Counted from the stretch's first letter, positions 2,230 through 29,872 are shown. The stretch: 32,000 nucleotides of DNA from Trichodesmium erythraeum IMS101 (GCF_000014265.1 NC_008312.1:6900001-6932000), one strand, 5' to 3'. Numbers and translations are program-made. Notes: generated by a model from the letters alone, not told the origin.

Positions 2230-3477
2230 TTATTGGGGAGGATGATATTTTCTAACGTCTATTTTGCCTGTTACTGTTTCAGAAATTAGAGTTGTTCGAT
2301 ATTCTTGGATTAATTTTATTTCCTTTTCTATTACGGTGAGCGATCGCTCAATTTTTTCTAATTTTTTTTCAATGAATGACACTATTTCTTTTTGTTCAGA
2401 AACTGGAGGAAAAGTAATAGGAAGTCTTTTGAGGTCTTTAAATTTCATATTCTGTCTTACACCGCTTCCCATAGAATAAAAAATTTTCAAAATATCATAG
2501 ATGTGAAGTAGGGTATACACATATTCTGGAATTACGTTTTGAGGGTTTAAACAAAGGTAAGCAGATGTTATTATTCCTTTTTCTTTAACCAACCCTACTC
2601 TCAAACTTCTTTTATCGTTTTGCAAGTCTGTTAGTCTTAGTATTATATTACCAGGTGTGACTATTTGGTAAGTTTCAAAAGACTCTGGAAGTAAACCAAA
2701 ATTGTTAGTAAAACTTTTTCTTATTATTTTACCGTAGCTAAGAGACAAAAGATTTTTTTCAACTAAGTCTCTGTTGATTACACATTGCTCTTTGAAAACT
2801 GCAAATGCTGGTAAAACCTCCCAATGTTCCGGTACTTCTCCTAACCATTCAATACCAGAATATTTCATCGAAACATCTGGGTTAATACCTTTAGTAACTG
2901 CCTGATTAATAATAACAGTTTTCTGTTCTTTTAGTAGTTCTATTATCCGTTGTTTTTTGGCAATATATTCATCTATTTGGGCGAGTTTTTCGTCTAGGAA
3001 ATTAGCGATCGCTTGTTGTTCTGAAAGGGGAGAAACTGGAACTAATTTTTGATAAGCTTTTTCGCGAGATAACCCTGGTACACCTGTATCTTGGGAAATT
3101 TTATCAAGCTCTAATATTTGTAGAGCATAGCATAACCATTTGAGATTTTGTTTGGTTTTTCTTTGGTCAATCAAATAAGCTGTATCAATACAAAAACAAG
3201 GAAACAAAGAATATTGAATTTTACCAAAAGAACCTTTTCTACCAACAATAATTACTGGTGAAAGAGTATTCGCTTTTGAATGCAGACCTATCATTCCATT
3301 AGAACCATATACATTAATATTACCGTCTTCTCTATTTTCTGAACCTAGAGAGTCACCATAAACAAGATGAGATATAAACTTTAGTCTTTTCATCTCCCAA
3401 TGTTCCGGTATTTCTCCTAACCATTCAACACCAGAACTTTTATAAACCGGATATTTTTGCCAATTAAAATTAACCAT
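2230..3477 (-). CDS. hsdS: Type I restriction-modification specificity subunit with two target-recognition domains.
   Basis: 415-aa ORF. An internal duplication is typical of HsdS: SGVEWLGEIPEHWEMKRLKF near the N-terminus and SGIEWLGEVPEHWEV at mid-protein. Two conserved coiled regions are present (LSEQQAIANFLDEKLAQIDEYI and VSEQKEIVSFIEKKLEKIERSL). It lies directly downstream of hsdM. Confidence 0.9.
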   Translation of the reverse strand: MVNFNWQKYPVYKSSGVEWLGEIPEHWEMKRLKFISHLVYGDSLGSENREDGNINVYGSNGMIGLHSKANTLSPVIIVGRKGSFGKIQYSLFPCFCIDTAYLIDQRKTKQNLKWLCYALQILELDKISQDTGVPGLSREKAYQKLVPVSPLSEQQAIANFLDEKLAQIDEYIAKKQRIIELLKEQKTVIINQAVTKGINPDVSMKYSGIEWLGEVPEHWEVLPAFAVFKEQCVINRDLVEKNLLSLSYGKIIRKSFTNNFGLLPESFETYQIVTPGNIILRLTDLQNDKRSLRVGLVKEKGIITSAYLCLNPQNVIPEYVYTLLHIYDILKIFYSMGSGVRQNMKFKDLKRLPITFPPVSEQKEIVSFIEKKLEKIERSLTVIEKEIKLIQEYRTTLISETVTGKIDVRKYHPPQ

Positions 3478-3598: not shown

Positions 3599-5632
3599 CT
3601 ACTCAAAAACAATCTCTCTCAATATTCCCTCTGTCTCTTTTTCCAACTCCAAAAGTTCCTCCACAATATCCTCCAAACTCCGCAACTTCTGAAATTTATA
3701 AAAATACTTAGTAAACGAAATCTCATAACCCCTCACCACTTTATCAAAATCTATCCAAGCATCAGAAACATGAGGCAAAACTTCCCTCTCAAAATACTCC
3801 TGAATATTCTCCTTCAAAGGCACATTTTCAGTATCCCTCAATTCCGCATCTGCTTGATAAACAACTCCCTTTTTTGTCTGCTTCAAAATAACAGCCTCTC
3901 CTCGCTCATCCTTCTCAGTAAAAATTTGATAAATCAAATCCAAATCTCGCTTTTTCAAATTCCACCCCTCCACCTTCAACGCCTTCTCAAAATCTCTCTT
4001 CACCAAATTAAAATCCCACTGCACCTCCTCACCAAATAACCCCCGCAAAATATCCACCACTCCCAACAAATCATCCCCCATTTTTTCACCAAATTCCTGA
4101 ACCCTTGCCGCCGTAACTTGAAAACTAAAACGCAAAGGTCTCTCCACAACAATCTTATGAAAACCAAAATCCTCATTATCAAAAATTCGACTATTATCCG
4201 ACTCCGAAAAATCCAAAAACTCCTCAGTTATCCTGTCAATATCTTCCCCCCGTAACTCACAACTTTTACTCCCCAAACTTTTCCTTAATTTCCCATACCA
4301 TTCCCTCCCATCTATCAACTGCACCTTACCCCGACGCTCCACAGATTTTTTATTAGAAATAATCCAAATATAAGTAGCAATACCAGTGTTATAAAACATA
4401 TTTAACGGCAAACCAACAATACATTCCAACCAATCATTTTCAATAATCCAACGGCGAATATTACTCTCCCCACTACCAGCATCTCCCGTAAATAAAGCCG
4501 AACCATTATGAACAATTGCTATCCGACTTCCCAACTTTGTCGAGTCTTTCATTTTAGAAAGTTTATTGACCAAAAATAATAATTGCCCGTCACTACTGCG
4601 GGGAATAAGTTGTAATTCTTCCCCCTGATGTTTAACCAAAAACCTATTATCTTTAACCTCCTTTTTTCTCCCCACTAAAATTTTATCCTGATCGACCTTC
4701 CAAGATTTTCCATAAGGAGGATTAGCCAACATAAAATCAAAAGTAAAATCCGGAAAACCATCACTAGCAAGAGTCGAAGCATACTTAATATTATCGGTTT
4801 CTTTTACCTTAATTAACATATCCGCCTGACAGATAGCATAAGTCTCAGGATTAACCTCTTGCCCAAATAAATGAATGACTACTTTTTTCCCCATTCCTGT
4901 TGCTAACTCCAGCAAAAAATTTTCTGCTTCTGTCAACATTCCCCCAGAACCACAAGCACAGTCATAAACTAAATAAGTAGTATTTTTAATCTGGTCTTTC
5001 ACAGGCATAAAAATCAAATTAACCATCAACTTAATAATATCGCGGGGAGTAAAATGTTCTCCTGCCTCTTCGTTATTTTCCTCATTAAATTTTCTAATTA
5101 ATTCCTCAAAAACATAACCCATACCCAAATTAGATAAACCAGGTTGAATAACCTTACCTTTTTTATCTTTTCTCGGTTCGGGACTGAGATTAATATCTGA
5201 GTCAGTAAACTTTTGAATTAAAGCATAAAGGCGCTTATGTTCTACCAAAGTTTCTAACTGGTTGCGGAACTTAAACTTATTAATAATTTCCTGTACATTG
5301 TCACTAAAACCATTCAGATAATCTATCAAATTTTCCTTGATAGACCTAGGTTCATCCAGTAATTTTTTAAGAGTAAATCCAGAAGTATTATAAAAAGGAT
5401 ATTTAGTAAATTCTGTTAATCCAGATTTATCAGAAATTTCCATATTTTCATAAAAATTATTCTCTTTTAAAACTGCTGCTTTTGTAGGTTCAAGCAAACA
5501 ATCTAACCGCCGAATAACAGTCATTGGTAGAATCACATCTCGGTATTTTCCCCTAACATAAATATCCCGTAAAACATCATCAGCAATTCCCCAAATAAAG
5601 CTAACAATTCCGTTATGTATATTTTGATCCAT
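3599..5632 (-). CDS. hsdM: Type I restriction-modification N6-adenine DNA methyltransferase subunit.
   Basis: 677-aa ORF. It has the AdoMet motif I (VYDCACGSGGML), the catalytic motif IV (LANPPYG) and an HsdM_N-like N-terminus (GIVSFIWGIADDVLRD...YRDVILPMTVIRRLD). Confidence 0.92.
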   Translation of the reverse strand: MDQNIHNGIVSFIWGIADDVLRDIYVRGKYRDVILPMTVIRRLDCLLEPTKAAVLKENNFYENMEISDKSGLTEFTKYPFYNTSGFTLKKLLDEPRSIKENLIDYLNGFSDNVQEIINKFKFRNQLETLVEHKRLYALIQKFTDSDINLSPEPRKDKKGKVIQPGLSNLGMGYVFEELIRKFNEENNEEAGEHFTPRDIIKLMVNLIFMPVKDQIKNTTYLVYDCACGSGGMLTEAENFLLELATGMGKKVVIHLFGQEVNPETYAICQADMLIKVKETDNIKYASTLASDGFPDFTFDFMLANPPYGKSWKVDQDKILVGRKKEVKDNRFLVKHQGEELQLIPRSSDGQLLFLVNKLSKMKDSTKLGSRIAIVHNGSALFTGDAGSGESNIRRWIIENDWLECIVGLPLNMFYNTGIATYIWIISNKKSVERRGKVQLIDGREWYGKLRKSLGSKSCELRGEDIDRITEEFLDFSESDNSRIFDNEDFGFHKIVVERPLRFSFQVTAARVQEFGEKMGDDLLGVVDILRGLFGEEVQWDFNLVKRDFEKALKVEGWNLKKRDLDLIYQIFTEKDERGEAVILKQTKKGVVYQADAELRDTENVPLKENIQEYFEREVLPHVSDAWIDFDKVVRGYEISFTKYFYKFQKLRSLEDIVEELLELEKETEGILREIVFE

Positions 5633-6118
5633 TTGTGTTATTTTTAGTGAAAAGTAACTAAAGTAAATTTTTTAATTTTATCATTAGTTCGACAGAAACT
5701 AAAACAATGCAGGGCGACAATATCATTATTCAGTTTATTAGCTGGAATAACTAAATCACCGTTTATCTAATAAAACCCGGTTCATATATAGCAGTCTTAA
5801 ATATTATATAAATTAAATACCTACTTAAAAAATAGCTTCTTTTGCTTTCTTCCTTTTACTCTCTATATTAAAGCATTCTATTTATTTCATTATTCAGATA
5901 AGATTGCTATAGTAACCAAACCAAAATTAATTTACTTTTAAATCTAATTAGATAATTTTGATATTTTTTTTTACTTTATTTTCTTGAGTTTAATTTTTTA
6001 TCTTAAAAATCAAATTTAAAGTTTTTAGGTAAAAATCAAATCTAGAAATAGAGAAACTAAAATCATTAAAATTTTGCCTAAATTGTGAAATCCCTAAAGT
6101 TCCCTATATCCTGTAATT

Positions 6119-6181
6119 AACCAACTCAAAAGTATGCTGAACTAGCTAGAAAGCAGCAGATAAATTCAGCATATTTTTTTT
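6119..6181 (+). ncRNA. Candidate small RNA, copy 1 of 3. It is about 60 nt and ends in a hairpin plus T8.
   Basis: 9-bp stem of TATGCTGAA (6133-6141) and TTCAGCATA (6165-6173), followed by T8 (6174-6181). The upstream promoter candidate is weaker and non-repeat: TTGTGA (6083-6088), N16, TATATC (6105-6110). There is no ORF. Confidence 0.3.
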
Positions 6182-6258
6182 GTTTATATAAAAACCTACT
6201 TCAACTCAATATTTATAAAGTATTTGACCGATAAACTATATTTAACTATCTTTTAATT

Positions 6259-6321
6259 AACCAACTCAAAAGTATGCTGAACTAGCTAGAAAGCAGCAGA
6301 TAAATTCAGCATATTTTTTTT
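6259..6321 (+). ncRNA. Candidate small RNA, copy 2 of 3.
   Basis: Promoter-like TTGACC (6224-6229), N17, TATCTT (6247-6252). An A at about 6259 is a plausible transcription start. Hairpin at 6273-6313 followed by T8 (6314-6321). Confidence 0.4.
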
Positions 6322-6398
6322 GTTTATATAAAAACCTACTTCAACTCAATATTTATAAAGTATTTGACCGATAAACTATATTTAAGTATCTTTTAATT

Positions 6399-6461
6399 AA
6401 CCAACTCAAAAGTATGCTGAACTAGCTAGAAAGCAGCAGATAAATTCAGCATATTTTTTTT
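6399..6461 (+). ncRNA. Candidate small RNA, copy 3 of 3.
   Basis: Promoter-like TTGACC (6364-6369), N17, TATCTT (6387-6392). Hairpin at 6413-6453 followed by T8 (6454-6461). Confidence 0.4.
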
Positions 6462-6690
6462 GTTTCTATAAAAATCTACTTCAACTCAATATTTATAAAA
6501 TATTTGACCGATAAACTATATTTAACTATCTTTTTTTTTAACTCTCATTTAATTTGAACTTAGACTAAGAGAATACCTCTAGATATTATAAAAAAATCTG
6601 CAAATTTAAGCACTCAGCCCTTAACCATAAACTAAAAGCTGCATCCCTAAACTTATGCTTTAATTTCTAACAAAACCATCAATACTTTAT

Positions 6691-7911
6691 TTATCTATCT
6701 ATGTAATCAACTCCAAATATTCTCTGCCAAACCAACTCTATCTCCTTATTAAATAACTGACTATTTACCCGCCACCTTAATAAACTATTTCCAGACTTCC
6801 CAATAATTTTACTGTCTATTCCTAAAGCTTTCCGAGGTGCAATAGTCCCTAAATTAATTGCAGTTTCAATATCACAAACCCCCCACTTTACCAAATTATT
6901 AACTCCAACCAATAAAGGTAAAGTTGTTCCCGCTAATATTCCATCTTGTAATCTAACCGTACCATTTTTAACTTCTATTTCTCTAGCATCCCAAGGGTAA
7001 ATTCCATCAGGTAATCCCAAAGGCGCCAAAGCATCACTAACCAAAAATATTCCTTGCTGATATTGACTTGCTTTTAACAAAATTTCTATCATTGTTGAAC
7101 AGACATGCTGACCATCAGCAATTAAACCACACATAACCTCAGAATTTGTAATTGCTGCTCCTAATAATCCTGGTTTTCGATGATGTAAACTGCCCATAGC
7201 ATTGAAGGCATGAGTTACCATTGAAGCTCCTAATTTAAAAGCTGTTTCTGCTTGATTTGCTGTCGCCTGAGAATGCCCTAAACTAACTATAATTCCTAGA
7301 TTTTTTAGGTAAGGAATTATTGTTTCTGTACTGTCTAATTCCGGTGCTAAAGTGATAATTTTAACTGTCTGACTATAATCGCCGATTACCTGCTTGACAT
7401 TTTCGATGCTTAATGGTAGCAAATATTTCTGAGGGTGAGCGCCCCGCTTTTCTGGATGCAAAAAAGGCCCTTCCAAATGTACGCCCCAAATTTTAGCTGT
7501 TTTTGGTTCTTGGGGTTGTGAGGCCAAATAGTCGAAGATTTGGAGCGATCGCTGAATATTATCTATAGAAGTTGTGACAATAGTAGGCAAAAAAGCATCT
7601 ATTCCCTGGTGCCATAAATATTGACAAATTTCATGTATTTTAGTTATTGAAGTTTCATCTACTTCCGGAAAAGGTAAACCCAAAGCACCATTAATTTGTA
7701 AATCAAACCCTCCGAGAGAAACCCAGTCTTGTTCCACATCAATAGTAGTAGATGTGCTAGGCAAAGCCTCTCCATTTTGAGGGATAATTTTCTCAATATT
7801 GCCAGTAGAATTGATGAAAATTTGCTGTAGGTTTTGATAACCAGGGACCTTAGCATTAATAATTTTAGTAGTTAAGTTCACGGGTTTAAATTCCAAGTTA
7901 TATTTTATCAA
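6691..7911 (-). CDS. nagA: N-acetylglucosamine-6-phosphate deacetylase.
   Basis: 406-aa ORF with NagA/amidohydrolase motifs: GGFDLQINGALG, HLEGPFL, VTHAFNAM, ADGQHV and VSDALAP. The start at 7911 is TTG. An alternative GTG lies 10 codons downstream, so the start is uncertain. Confidence 0.88.
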   Translation of the reverse strand: MIKYNLEFKPVNLTTKIINAKVPGYQNLQQIFINSTGNIEKIIPQNGEALPSTSTTIDVEQDWVSLGGFDLQINGALGLPFPEVDETSITKIHEICQYLWHQGIDAFLPTIVTTSIDNIQRSLQIFDYLASQPQEPKTAKIWGVHLEGPFLHPEKRGAHPQKYLLPLSIENVKQVIGDYSQTVKIITLAPELDSTETIIPYLKNLGIIVSLGHSQATANQAETAFKLGASMVTHAFNAMGSLHHRKPGLLGAAITNSEVMCGLIADGQHVCSTMIEILLKASQYQQGIFLVSDALAPLGLPDGIYPWDAREIEVKNGTVRLQDGILAGTTLPLLVGVNNLVKWGVCDIETAINLGTIAPRKALGIDSKIIGKSGNSLLRWRVNSQLFNKEIELVWQRIFGVDYIDR

Positions 7912-8271
7912 CTATAAAAAATTATGTTAAAATAAAAGAGAATTTTAGATTTTTTTTGGGAAATCAATATCCCAACATGGAAATACATAAACTTAAAGTC
8001 AAAACTTTAATTACTATATATTTTTTAAATTTTACATTCCCTAAAATATCTATACTGTAACATCTCAATCCTTCATTTTTTTCCATAAAACAAAAGGCAA
8101 AAAAAATATTTAAAAATACAAAAAAAAGTGCTTATTAACTAGATTTCATAAAATTAAATTCATAACTATTAACCTTAAATTTCTTAAGTATGAATTGATA
8201 AAAATACAAAATTATTAATTCAAAAAAATAGGTAGACTTTCTTTTCAGGTGTTTACATAAAAAACTGATAT

Positions 8272-8543
8272 CTATTAACATATTTAACATGAAAAATAAA
8301 ATATTGAATTGACTATATAAAAAATATAAAAATAAAAATAAACATTATAGATGAATGATATAATTTTATACTTAAAATAAAAGAGATAAAATAAATAACC
8401 AGAAACTTGGGAATAAAAATAATTTTGCAGTAAAAAAACAAAATTAAAATACAAATAATTATTCAAGTTTTCTCACAATTTCAGGTTTGAAAATAAAAAA
8501 CTCAGCACTTTTTATACGTGTAGAAAGTTTAAAGCTTTAGCTA
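8272..8543 (+). mobile_element. Left part of a decayed, AT-mutated, MITE-like relative of the IS630 element, interrupted by the intact copy.
   Basis: By-eye alignment to the intact IS. 8519-8541 (GTGTAGAAAGTTTAAAGCTTTAG) matches internal 8790-8812 (GTGTAGAAGTTTAAGGCTTCAG region). 8466-8520 matches 8740-8790 (TTCTCACA...GCA.T.TTT.AT..GTGTAGAAAG). 8341-8400 matches the transposase start region (AA.ATTATAGAT.AA). Many differences are G/C to A/T changes. Confidence 0.55.
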
Positions 8544-9656
8544 TAGCAATCCCATATTGGTCGCAACAGATATAATAGTAAGAATAACAGATCTAAGAAA
8601 AAGACAAAAAATGAATATTATAGATAAACTAAATGATTTTATTAATCAAACAAAAGAGTCTAAAGAAATTAAAAGGGCCTTGGCCGTAAAAATGACCTTG
8701 TCAGGAAAATCCTACCATGAAGTCAAAGAATTATTAAATGTTTCTCACAGTTTTATTAGTGAATGGAAAAACCAAGCATTATTTCATGGTGTAGAAAGTT
8801 TAAGGCTTCAGTATCAAGGGAGACAAGGTTACTTAAAAACGGTCGAAAAAGAGAAAACAATTGAGTGGTTGAGAGCACAAGATTATCTTAGGTTATCAGA
8901 TTTAAAAAACTACTTACAGGAGCAATATGATGTGGTTTTTGAGTCTAATCAAAGTTACTATAACTTGTTTAAAGAAGCGGGCATAAGTTGGAAAAAAACT
9001 CAAAAAAAGAATCCTGCTAAAAATGATGAATTAGTAGAAGTTAAAAGAAAAGAAATAGAGGAATTTTTAGCTAAATGGCAACCAGAAATAGAAACTGGAA
9101 AGCTTACAGTGTTTATGATTGATGAATGTCATCTTCTATGGGGAGACATATTAGGTTATGCTTGGGGAAAAACAGATGAAAGAATAGAAATTGCAATTAA
9201 AAATGAAAAAGAAAGACAGACTTATTATGGAGCTTTAGACTATAAAACCAAGGAATTTCTTGTGCAAGAATATGAGAGTGGAAATACTAAAAATACTATT
9301 GAATTTATTAAATATTTGCAGAAGCAAAGACCGGGCAACAAATTGGCAATATTTTGGGATGGGGCAACTTACCATAACTCTCAAGAATTTCGAGAATATT
9401 TAATGACAATTAATCAATACTTATCAGAAGAAGAATTGTTGATAAATTGTACAAGATTTGCTCCCAATGCTCCGGAGCAAAATCCTGTTGAAGATATTTG
9501 GTTACAAACCAAAAATTTCAGTATTACTTTTTATCATCTTTGCAGTTCTTTTAAAGTAGTTAAGTGGCTATTTAAGTTTTTTGCGGATGGTCAAATATTC
9601 AATTTCCCAAAACTTTTTCAGTATGAAATTTTGCCGCAACCTACTTAGGATTGCTA
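8544..9656 (+). mobile_element. IS630-family insertion sequence, apparently intact, 1113 bp.
   Basis: Terminal inverted repeats are TAGCAATCC (8544-8552) and GGATTGCTA (9648-9656), with further partial matches inward. It is flanked by TA (8542-8543) and TA (9657-9658), which fits the TA target duplication of the IS630/Tc1-mariner group. It encodes a single transposase ORF. Confidence 0.85.
8611..9648 (+). CDS. IS630-family transposase (HTH plus DDE_3-type catalytic domain).
   Basis: The ORF track gives 8557..9648 from a TTG. The first ATG, at 8611 (MNIIDKLNDF...), is the more likely start. The N-terminus is HTH-like (RALAVKMTLSGKSYHEVKELLNVSHSFISEWKNQ). Acidic catalytic-region motifs are FMIDECHLLWG, IFWDGATYHNS and APNAPEQNPVEDIW. 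Confidence 0.85.
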   Translation: MNIIDKLNDFINQTKESKEIKRALAVKMTLSGKSYHEVKELLNVSHSFISEWKNQALFHGVESLRLQYQGRQGYLKTVEKEKTIEWLRAQDYLRLSDLKNYLQEQYDVVFESNQSYYNLFKEAGISWKKTQKKNPAKNDELVEVKRKEIEEFLAKWQPEIETGKLTVFMIDECHLLWGDILGYAWGKTDERIEIAIKNEKERQTYYGALDYKTKEFLVQEYESGNTKNTIEFIKYLQKQRPGNKLAIFWDGATYHNSQEFREYLMTINQYLSEEELLINCTRFAPNAPEQNPVEDIWLQTKNFSITFYHLCSSFKVVKWLFKFFADGQIFNFPKLFQYEILPQPT

Positions 9657-9658
9657 TA

Positions 9659-9825
9659 TCAAGGATGAACATGCCACATTAATGCTATAAACATAGATAA
9701 TCTTAGCTGTGAAATTAACCAATACTTGTTTTCTAATAGCTATGGTGGAAGCAAGGCACCAATGGGTTATTTGTCCAACTTTTCACTCTATTTTAATTAA
9801 GCCTAATCTTATTAAGTCTTTAACT
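9659..9825 (+). mobile_element. Right part of the decayed MITE-like IS630 relative. It is an internally deleted derivative.
   Basis: Joining 8541 to 9659 reconstructs GCTTTAGCTATCAAGGATGAACA, which parallels the internal sequence GCTTCAGTATCAAGGGAGACA. GATAATCTTAGCTGTGAAATTAA resembles internal GATTATCTTAGGTTATCAGATTTAA. TCCAACTTTTCACTCTATTTTAATTAAGCC resembles the IS right-end region CCCAAAACTTTTTCAGTATGAAATTTTGCC. Confidence 0.45.
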
Positions 9826-9830
9826 AATAT

Positions 9831-10340
9831 ATGAATGCCATAGTCGGAATTATAATGGGCAGTGACTCAGACTTGCCCACAATGAAAGAAGCGATCGCTA
9901 TTTGCGAAGAATTTAACATACCCTCAGAAGTCGCCATCCTATCAGCTCACCGCACACCCCAAAGAATGTTTGAATATGCCCAAACTGCCCATAAAAGAGG
10001 ATTAAAAGTCATCATTGCCGGAGCAGGAGGGGCAGCACATCTACCAGGAATGGTCGCATCTTTAACGCCACTCCCTGTAATAGGTGTACCAGTACAAACT
10101 CGAACCTTACAAGGAGTAGACTCATTATATTCTATAGTGCAAATGCCAGGGGGAATACCAGTCGCCACAGTAGCCATCGGCAATGCCAAAAATGCTGGCT
10201 TATTGGCCATTCAAATCTTAGCATCCCACCAACCAGAATTATTAGAACAAGTGCAAAAGTACCGTCACACCTTAGCTGAGTCAGTAATAGATAAGCAAAA
10301 TAAACTAGATCAAATTGGATATCAAGAATATTTAATATAA
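9831..10340 (+). CDS. purE: 5-(carboxyamino)imidazole ribonucleotide mutase.
   Basis: 169-aa ORF with PurE motifs: [19 protein letters not shown] and [14 protein letters not shown]. Confidence 0.93.
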
Positions 10341-29314: not shown

Positions 29315-29322
29315 TACAAAAA

Positions 29323-29427
29323 CAGAAAACAGAAAACAGAAAACAGAAAACAGAAAACAGAAAACAGAAAACAGAAAACAGAAAACAGAAAACAGAAAAC
29401 AGAAACCAGAAAACAGAAACCAGAAAA
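29323..29427. repeat. Heptanucleotide microsatellite (CAGAAAA)n, 15 units, two of which are CAGAAAC.
   Basis: Units start at 29323+7k for k=0..14. The array begins 9 nt after the map stop codon. Confidence 0.97.
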
Positions 29428-29872
29428 CAAAAGCTCAGTTTTTATTATAATAGATGTCAGTATGATTTAGATATCTTTGCAGAAAGTATTAAGCTAGCTA
29501 CAAGTTTTATACTACTTAGATGTTAGTAATTTTAAGTCTAAATGAACTATACCTCTTTCAGTTTAAGTATAAAAAGATAAGAGTCTATTAATGTTTATTT
29601 TATAAATCAGCTTGAATACATCTGGTTTCTTAGCAACAGAAGAATACAAAACAAGTCAATATTCTGGAATATCTTAAGCTAAACCTGGTTTTGCTTTGAA
29701 ATATACAACTCATAAAAAAAAACTTTAGTCAAGTGTAGTAAACAATATATTTTGTTCATTCCATTAATGATAAAAATTAGCTAAATTAGAACTAAAAATA
29801 ATGAGTAAGGATAATCTATATTGATCATATTATTTTACTTAAGATAAAAATGAACTAGAGGAAAAATTAAAA

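Follow-up and report, generated by a model that had tools for sequence, protein, structure and literature searches.

How did the spacer between nagA and hsdM in Trichodesmium erythraeum IMS101 come to hold three near-identical copies of what looks like a small RNA (sRNA) gene, and what might they do there? The locus lies in a stretch of 32,000 nucleotides (GCF_000014265.1 NC_008312.1:6900001-6932000), called the window below, and coordinates count from its first letter unless another contig is named. A first-pass annotation made from the sequence alone had proposed a tandem array of sRNA genes, each with a promoter, about 60 nt, a hairpin and eight T residues, and had offered stacked bidirectional terminators as the alternative. 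It had also placed the array between nagA and an hsd operon, which is correct: hsdM and hsdS are identified by Pfam and nagA by the names of its homologues. Along the minus strand the order is nagA, array, hsdM, hsdS, and no plus-strand gene lies upstream of the array. The flanking features are:

6691-7881, minus strand: nagA (N-acetylglucosamine-6-phosphate deacetylase; names of homologues), preceding the array along the minus strand
about 6590-6659, minus strand: terminator-like long imperfect hairpin of nagA with T7 at 6596-6590 (fold and sequence)
3599-5632, minus strand: hsdM (type I restriction-modification methylase; Pfam), downstream of the array on the minus strand
2230-3477, minus strand: hsdS (Pfam), after hsdM

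The hairpin and T7 beside nagA start about 32 nt past the nagA stop codon and, from their fold and position, are probably nagA's own terminator. Farther along, the gap between nagA and purE (7912-9830) contains a DDE_3/HTH transposase ORF (8557-9648); in three relatives (L041, L046 and L059) only about 116 bp separates the divergently oriented nagA and purE, so the transposase of the window represents an IS insertion specific to the window lineage. The 32-kb window has hsdM and hsdS and no hsdR-sized ORF. The type I system may be methylase-only, or hsdR may lie past a 104-bp tandem array (16.2 copies, 95% matches, 409-2095) directly downstream of hsdS. Okeania (92 bp x 6.2, L061 9169-9731) and Dapis (44 bp x 7.6, L060 9563-9898) have arrays at the corresponding place, and the Trichodesmium and Okeania units have a common core, approximately GAATTTTCC..TTTGC.AAA. 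With its position kept in three genera, this hsdS-downstream array may deserve more interest than the 140-bp one considered here. The window also contains an AAAACAG heptamer repeated 15.9 times (96% matches, 29319-29429), a short tandem repeat type common in filamentous cyanobacteria.

The tandem 140-bp array proposed for the nagA-hsdM spacer was recovered by Tandem Repeats Finder (TRF) at 6107-6534, as a 140-bp direct repeat present in 3.1 copies (3.06) with 97% matches. Pairwise identity among the 140-bp copies is 97-100%. The copies are:

6107-6246, plus strand: repeat copy 1, whose head differs at 6111 and 6113 (TRF and copy table)
6247-6386, plus strand: repeat copy 2 (TRF and copy alignment)
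6387-6526, plus strand: repeat copy 3, with three private substitutions in the spacer past T8
6527-6534, plus strand: partial copy 4 (TATCTTTT), an 8-nt stub that is the microhomology at the right duplication boundary (TRF and alignment)

The two differences in the head of copy 1 arise because the unique left flank adjoins that copy. Besides the three private substitutions of copy 3, a fourth inter-copy difference, G/C, affects the final base of copy 2 (6386) and sits within the spacer of the promoter-like site that precedes copy 3. All four lie outside a 62-nt segment that ends with the T8 run of each copy. The probability of this by chance, (78/140)^4, is about 0.1, and the pattern is weak evidence in favour of a transcription unit. 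The array contains no ORF of at least 20 aa, as the first-pass annotation had said, and the sole ATG of the 140-bp unit starts a frame of three codons, which rules out a small peptide gene. A CRISPR array is likewise rejected: the whole 140-bp unit, would-be spacer included, repeats at 97% identity.

Short-read contigs are prone to break in the array region (L003, L004, L005 and L058), and another contig (L002) has a run of N within it, raising the question of an assembly artefact. The breaks, however, fall exactly where a k=31 graph is predicted to branch (position 6143). An independent metagenome assembly (L001) contains all three copies together with both flanks, 99.6% identical to the window, and a third assembly, L058, contains the copy-to-copy junction. 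The contigs near-identical to the window include JAGGDU010000230; JAGGDU has been named as Trichodesmium erythraeum (PMC9366434). The 41-nt hairpin described below is also expected zero times by chance, and we give next to no credence to the view that the array is an artefact or a chance pattern and not a genuine genomic feature. All four differences of L001 from the window make its copy 3 identical to copy 2, a pattern that indicates continuing homogenisation.

The most distinctive element of the unit is a 41-nt hairpin, TATGCTGAA-N23-TTCAGCATA, which occurs exactly three times (6133, 6273 and 6413). Each copy has a perfect 9-bp stem followed on the plus strand by T8 (6174-6181, 6314-6321 and 6454-6461), just as had been annotated, and each is preceded by A4, so that the reported A-tract upstream and T-tract downstream are also present. 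The segment 6259-6321 (63 nt, plus strand) folds stably as one long hairpin, at -15.9 kcal/mol with a z-score of -3.4 against dinucleotide shuffles and main-stem pair probabilities of 0.94-1.0; its reverse strand folds less well (-14.7, z = -1.8). Two mutually exclusive folds had been envisaged, with TGCTG pairing to CAGCA in the second. That complementarity exists, but at -4.4 kcal/mol its energy is negligible next to the main fold, which rules out a riboswitch-like alternative.

A custom scan of both strands of the 32-kb window, requiring a perfect stem of at least 9 bp and then at least 7 T in 8 bases, matched the three array hairpins only. About 19% of Markov-simulated windows hold at least one such site, so a single hairpin of this type is moderately unusual and not extraordinary. 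A consensus terminator scan of 5500-7000 returned no terminator-like site; it missed the hairpin because the stem is AT-rich, with just three G-C pairs, and the apical part measures 23 nt. Like a Rho-independent terminator, the array element combines a stable hairpin with a U8 tract directly after it, and its A-tract upstream allows the stem to be extended. Unlike one, it has a stem that is not G+C-rich and a 23-nt apical part in place of a 3-8 nt loop, and there is no upstream plus-strand gene to terminate. It also differs from a partly bidirectional terminator: on the minus strand the hairpins are followed merely by CTTTTG, a U-tract of 4 nt. We infer that the hairpin would stop transcription on the plus strand.

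Does each hairpin have a promoter of its own? The candidate sites are:

6083-6112, plus strand: weak promoter-like TTGTGA-N18-TATCCT before copy 1, 8/12 consensus positions, under the scan threshold and read from the sequence
6224-6252, plus strand: promoter-like TTGACC-N17-TATCTT preceding the copy 2 hairpin (consensus scan)
6364-6392, plus strand: promoter-like TTGACC-N17-TATCTT preceding the copy 3 hairpin (consensus scan)
6504-6532, plus strand: promoter-like TTGACC-N17-TATCTT past copy 3, antisense toward the nagA terminator and 3' end (consensus scan)

The earlier description of one promoter per cassette thus applies to copies 2 and 3, with TTGACC-N17-TATCTT at 6224 and 6364, but not to copy 1, which is preceded by unique DNA with the 8/12 site only. 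The fourth site, at 6504, does point antisense at the 3' end of nagA, as had been noted. The TTGACC-N17-TATCTT sites match 9/12 consensus positions. Shuffles predict about 126 sites of this quality and the window has 111, which is no enrichment, and their density of about 1 per 580 nt per strand gives a 140-nt unit an approximately 1-in-5 chance of holding one on a given strand. A promoter here is plausible from its good -35 box, ideal 17-nt spacer and A start, albeit statistically unsupported. The putative start A lies about 6-7 nt past the -10 box and 62 nt ahead of the T8 end. If the sites fire, the predicted products are:

6119-6181, plus strand: putative RNA 1 of about 62 nt, with a 14-nt 5' tail, hairpin at 6133-6173 and T8 at 6174-6181
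6259-6321, plus strand: putative RNA 2 of about 62 nt, with hairpin at 6273-6313 and T8 at 6314-6321
6399-6461, plus strand: putative RNA 3 of about 62 nt, with hairpin at 6413-6453 and T8 at 6454-6461

The boundaries of the unit suggest how promoter-like site and hairpin came together. An imperfect short direct repeat marks both ends of the unit (CTATATCCTGTAATTAAC at the left, ACTATCTTTTTTTTTAAC at the right), and the internal junctions (…AACTATCTTTT|AATTAACC…) are hybrids of both boundary repeats, the signature of slippage or unequal exchange at microhomology. On balance, we favour the view that a 140-bp piece of the nagA-hsdM spacer was recently triplicated in tandem, in the T. erythraeum lineage only, and that this triplication is probably neutral. 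The ancestral unit would have carried one plus-strand hairpin of the Rho-independent type, its 9-bp stem lengthened by A-U pairs and followed by U8. Slippage or unequal exchange would then have fused consecutive units tail to head. Given the hybrid origin of the junctions, the TTGACC…TATCTT site is part of the ancestral unit's tail; it would originally have been aimed at nagA, and duplication alone would have put a hairpin after it. As a by-product, each junction would set a pre-existing TTGACC-N17-TATCTT site 6 nt ahead of an A that lies 62 nt upstream of a T8 end. Copies 2 and 3 could in this way release identical plus-strand RNAs of about 62 nt, convergent with nagA and antisense to any read-through from nagA to hsdM. 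Such RNAs, if made, would be young by-products and not a conserved regulator.

Sister lineages of Trichodesmium preserve what appears to be the single-copy state. A 10.6-kb contig (L059; about 94% identity to the window in NagA and 98% in HsdM) runs unbroken through amt, purE, nagA, the spacer, hsdM and hsdS and has exactly one unit. Two independent assemblies of one further lineage (L046 and L057, NagA 96%) likewise show the right flank, one unit and the left flank, a single copy that could be an assembly collapse. In L059 the 3' stem arm has TTTAGCATC where the window has TTCAGCATA: one G-C pair has become G-U, which pairs in the plus-strand RNA only, and the other change breaks the closing pair. 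The fold is correspondingly weaker, at -11.1 kcal/mol (z -1.0). Among three distinct sequences there are zero compensatory pairs (one G-U, one broken), a comparison of low power. Between the window and L059, 2 of 41 hairpin positions and 2 of 14 positions of the 5' tail have changed and the 23-nt loop is unaltered, which makes the tail, the proposed seed, the fastest-changing part. Divergence is 5-11% in every part of the spacer, compared with 6.8% at four-fold degenerate sites of nagA and 4.3% at those of hsdM; on the very few substitutions that underlie this comparison, spacer and unit are indistinguishable from four-fold sites, and conservation of the unit above the neutral rate is not seen. 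The corresponding four-fold divergence of purE (9831-10340) is 24.7%, and the block of nagA, spacer and hsdM (3599-7881) may have been recently exchanged between Trichodesmium lineages.

The L059 contig also has a 91-nt insertion (5296-5390 of that contig) between the TTGACC box and the T-run, equivalent to a point between 6522 and 6523 in the window, and the promoter-like site is consequently not intact there. In its fold the insertion is a single long inverted repeat (z -2.6), resembling a small MITE. Its plus-strand hairpin, unrelated to that of the array, lies about 130 nt further on and is followed 7 nt later by a T9 run, which is also found on the plus strand of the window. The opposite polarity, in which the window lineage lost these 91 nt and thereby gained the -10 box, is less likely, as Okeania matches the arrangement of the window.

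How far beyond these lineages does the unit extend? Okeania SIO3I5 (L061) and Dapis BLCC M126 (L060) keep the nagA-hsdM adjacency, which rules out that the hsd genes are a recent island beside nagA. In the lineage from TARA (NagA 90% identity), different DNA without hsd genes begins directly past the nagA stop. A covariance model built from the three known variants matched the three window copies and the single copy of L059 only; it did not find the hairpin in the Okeania, Dapis or TARA-lineage loci. Weak homology to the TTGACC…TCATTTAATTT segment persists in Okeania (nhmmer E = 2e-5), where the diverged counterpart of the fourth promoter-like site reads TTGACT-N17-CATCTC. The Okeania nagA-hsdM spacer contains its own, unrelated 194/296-bp tandem repeats that include the nagA 3' end, so tandem duplication is recurrent in this spacer; these repeats recall the Tery_0080-fragment repeats described for T. 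erythraeum (PMC4143802). Between purE and nagA, the same Okeania contig has an array of 324 bp x 6 (L061 2071-4011), with a 58-aa ORF called per unit.

Wider searches gave no further copy. A scan of 185,579 species genomes for the stem and T-run returned 33 chance terminators in unrelated phyla and no homologue; it also missed the window's own locus, so that the source region was evidently masked or not represented and paralogues in the source genome are not strictly excluded. In metagenomes, an anchor on the nagA side gave zero matches and the stem pattern gave ten chance matches with no homology past the stem. Viral contigs, plasmids and phages contained no copy of the unit. A MITE or dispersed mobile repeat was rejected on the same grounds, as no copy was found outside the array in the window, the species genomes, the metagenomes or the viral, plasmid and phage sets. 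Against Rfam 15 (4227 models), no family matched at its gathering score or at E<=10 apart from a spurious plant miRNA at 6601-6655, which arises from the nagA hairpin at 6590-6659; this accords with the earlier caution in claiming no homology. Relatives did not reveal a conserved or covarying stem: no compensatory change was found, the stem is eroded in L059, and farther out the hairpin is absent.

The layout had been likened to NsiR1, with the reservation that homology could not be claimed. NsiR1 is a tandem sRNA array of heterocystous cyanobacteria (Ionescu et al. 2010, as presented in PMC6596454), described there as lying upstream of hetF in about 20 genera. Both are short non-coding direct tandem repeats in a cyanobacterial intergenic spacer, and both combine a promoter-like site with a terminator hairpin in each repeat, for a predicted product of about 60 nt. 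To our knowledge Trichodesmium forms no heterocysts, and NsiR1 of Anabaena has about 12 copies. The array has three, its RNAs are putative, its flanks are nagA and hsdM instead of hetF, its host is Trichodesmium, and it is limited to a few closely related lineages as opposed to about 20 genera. It matches no Rfam family, in a set of 4227 models that may or may not include NsiR1. TCCGGA occurs four times in the window, never between 4755 and 7663 and thus not in the array. Put to an NsiR1-like layout, the locus has the repeats and the terminator-like hairpins, and its promoters are consensus matches at chance density. The earlier reservation was well placed: judged by sequence and context, the array appears to resemble NsiR1 in layout only and not to be an NsiR1 homologue.

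A closer precedent comes from the same genome. T. erythraeum IMS101 expresses a tandem repeat of more than 6 kb whose seven units each have their own start site (Pfreundt et al. 2014, PMC4143802); its ncRNA of about 260 nt was demonstrated by dRNA-seq and Northern blots (PMC4143802). That repeat, like the array, lies beside a gene 3' end and has no similarity outside the genome; unlike the array, its units measure 736-973 bp and include copies of the neighbouring gene's 3' end, whereas the array units are 140 bp long, lack a gene fragment and are known here from sequence alone. In T. erythraeum 6,080 start sites have been mapped (PMC4143802), and the species has the highest share of non-coding start sites among the bacteria examined (PMC4143802; PMC6596454). 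The size cut-off of the published dRNA-seq library, 300-500 bp, misses short RNAs, such as one of 60 nt (PMC4143802), so the absence of the array from the main text of that paper means little. The array can also be set beside other tandem sibling sRNAs. PrrF1/PrrF2, OmrA/OmrB and LhrC1-4 are conserved across species and have known regulators and targets. With these the array has in common adjacent, near-identical promoter-to-terminator units that stem from local duplication; it differs in being very young and in having a structure that is not visibly kept in the sister lineage.

If not a neutral triplication, the locus could be a genuine functional tandem sRNA array of the NsiR1 kind, in which three units make the same regulator of about 62 nt and copy number sets the dose. 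We regard this as possible but doubtful. The threefold cassette of promoter-like site, about 62 nt, hairpin and T8 is confirmed in full, and the array has an orphan plus-strand terminator and no ORF; orphan terminators close to promoters have led to the discovery of many sRNAs. The copies differ in their spacers and not in the putative transcript (P about 0.1), the loop is unaltered in L059, and both the seven-unit repeat with its start site per unit and the dRNA-seq cut-off (PMC4143802) speak for this reading. Yet the promoter match is at chance level, and the array is confined to the T. erythraeum-type lineage, with one copy and a weaker stem in the sister. Relatives lend no support: there is no covariation, conservation is lowest in the 5' tail, where the seed would probably lie, the rate overall resembles a neutral one, no Rfam family matches, and Okeania, Dapis and the TARA lineage lack the hairpin, even in loci that keep the nagA-hsdM synteny. 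Nor did a target search give any signal beyond its controls: in duplex energy with the window's 18 translation start regions, the putative RNA did no better than shuffled sRNAs (fraction 0.47). A variant that we consider improbable is a newborn sRNA family, in which duplication at microhomology fused a pre-existing promoter to a pre-existing orphan terminator, the cassette was multiplied to three doses, and the RNA, perfectly antisense to any read-through from nagA to hsdM, could tune the hsd operon. In that case, the sister lineage could not make the RNA of about 62 nt from that promoter.

The other main alternative treats the hairpins as stacked terminators that form an insulator, blocking plus-strand transcription from the AT-rich region upstream of hsdM before it reaches nagA, with triplication tightening the block; a weak bidirectional action on nagA read-through into hsdM may be an added role. 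The hairpin with U8 is the only statistically notable feature and the sole stem and T-run of its type in the window, with A4 and T8 about each hairpin, and the second, unrelated plus-strand hairpin in L059 with its T9 run would fit the same purpose, although it lies in the insertion that resembles a small inverted-repeat element. Cyanobacteria are not known to have Rho, so hairpin terminators carry the load in these organisms. The proposal that the array stops nagA read-through is nevertheless weakened by the nagA hairpin and T7, 32 nt past the stop, and by the lone CUUUUG after the array hairpin on the minus strand. Upstream of the array there is no plus-strand gene or proven promoter to insulate against. 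Because nagA has its own terminator and a single copy with a decayed stem is enough in the sister lineage, we think an insulator unlikely.

The neutral triplication, which we prefer, has the repeat, its junctions, the hairpin, the lineage restriction and the neutral-like divergence behind it, and several observations pull against it. A plus-strand terminator with no upstream plus-strand gene is a classical sRNA signature, and a TTGACC -35 box with an optimal 17-nt spacer and an A start makes a good promoter. The G-U change in L059 retains pairing in the plus-strand RNA only. T. erythraeum expresses another tandem repeat from every unit (PMC4143802), assembly collapse could account for the single copy of L046 and L057, and the divergence comparison is built on very few substitutions.

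The first-pass proposal is supported in part: its layout holds, its promoters and function are putative, and the evidence from relatives tilts to neutrality. We class the array as a tandem repeat and sRNA candidate that is undescribed, confined to one lineage and of a general kind already known. The Trichodesmium genome is 40% non-coding, with much of this DNA transcribed. If the array is silent, it would be another neutral tandem repeat in a repeat-rich genome, and a caution that, in AT-rich DNA, a layout of promoter, hairpin and T-run is by itself weak evidence of an sRNA gene. If it is expressed, this locus beside a restriction-modification operon would be a dated case of a promoter-terminator cassette made and amplified by local duplication, with the single-copy sister lineage providing the before-and-after comparison.
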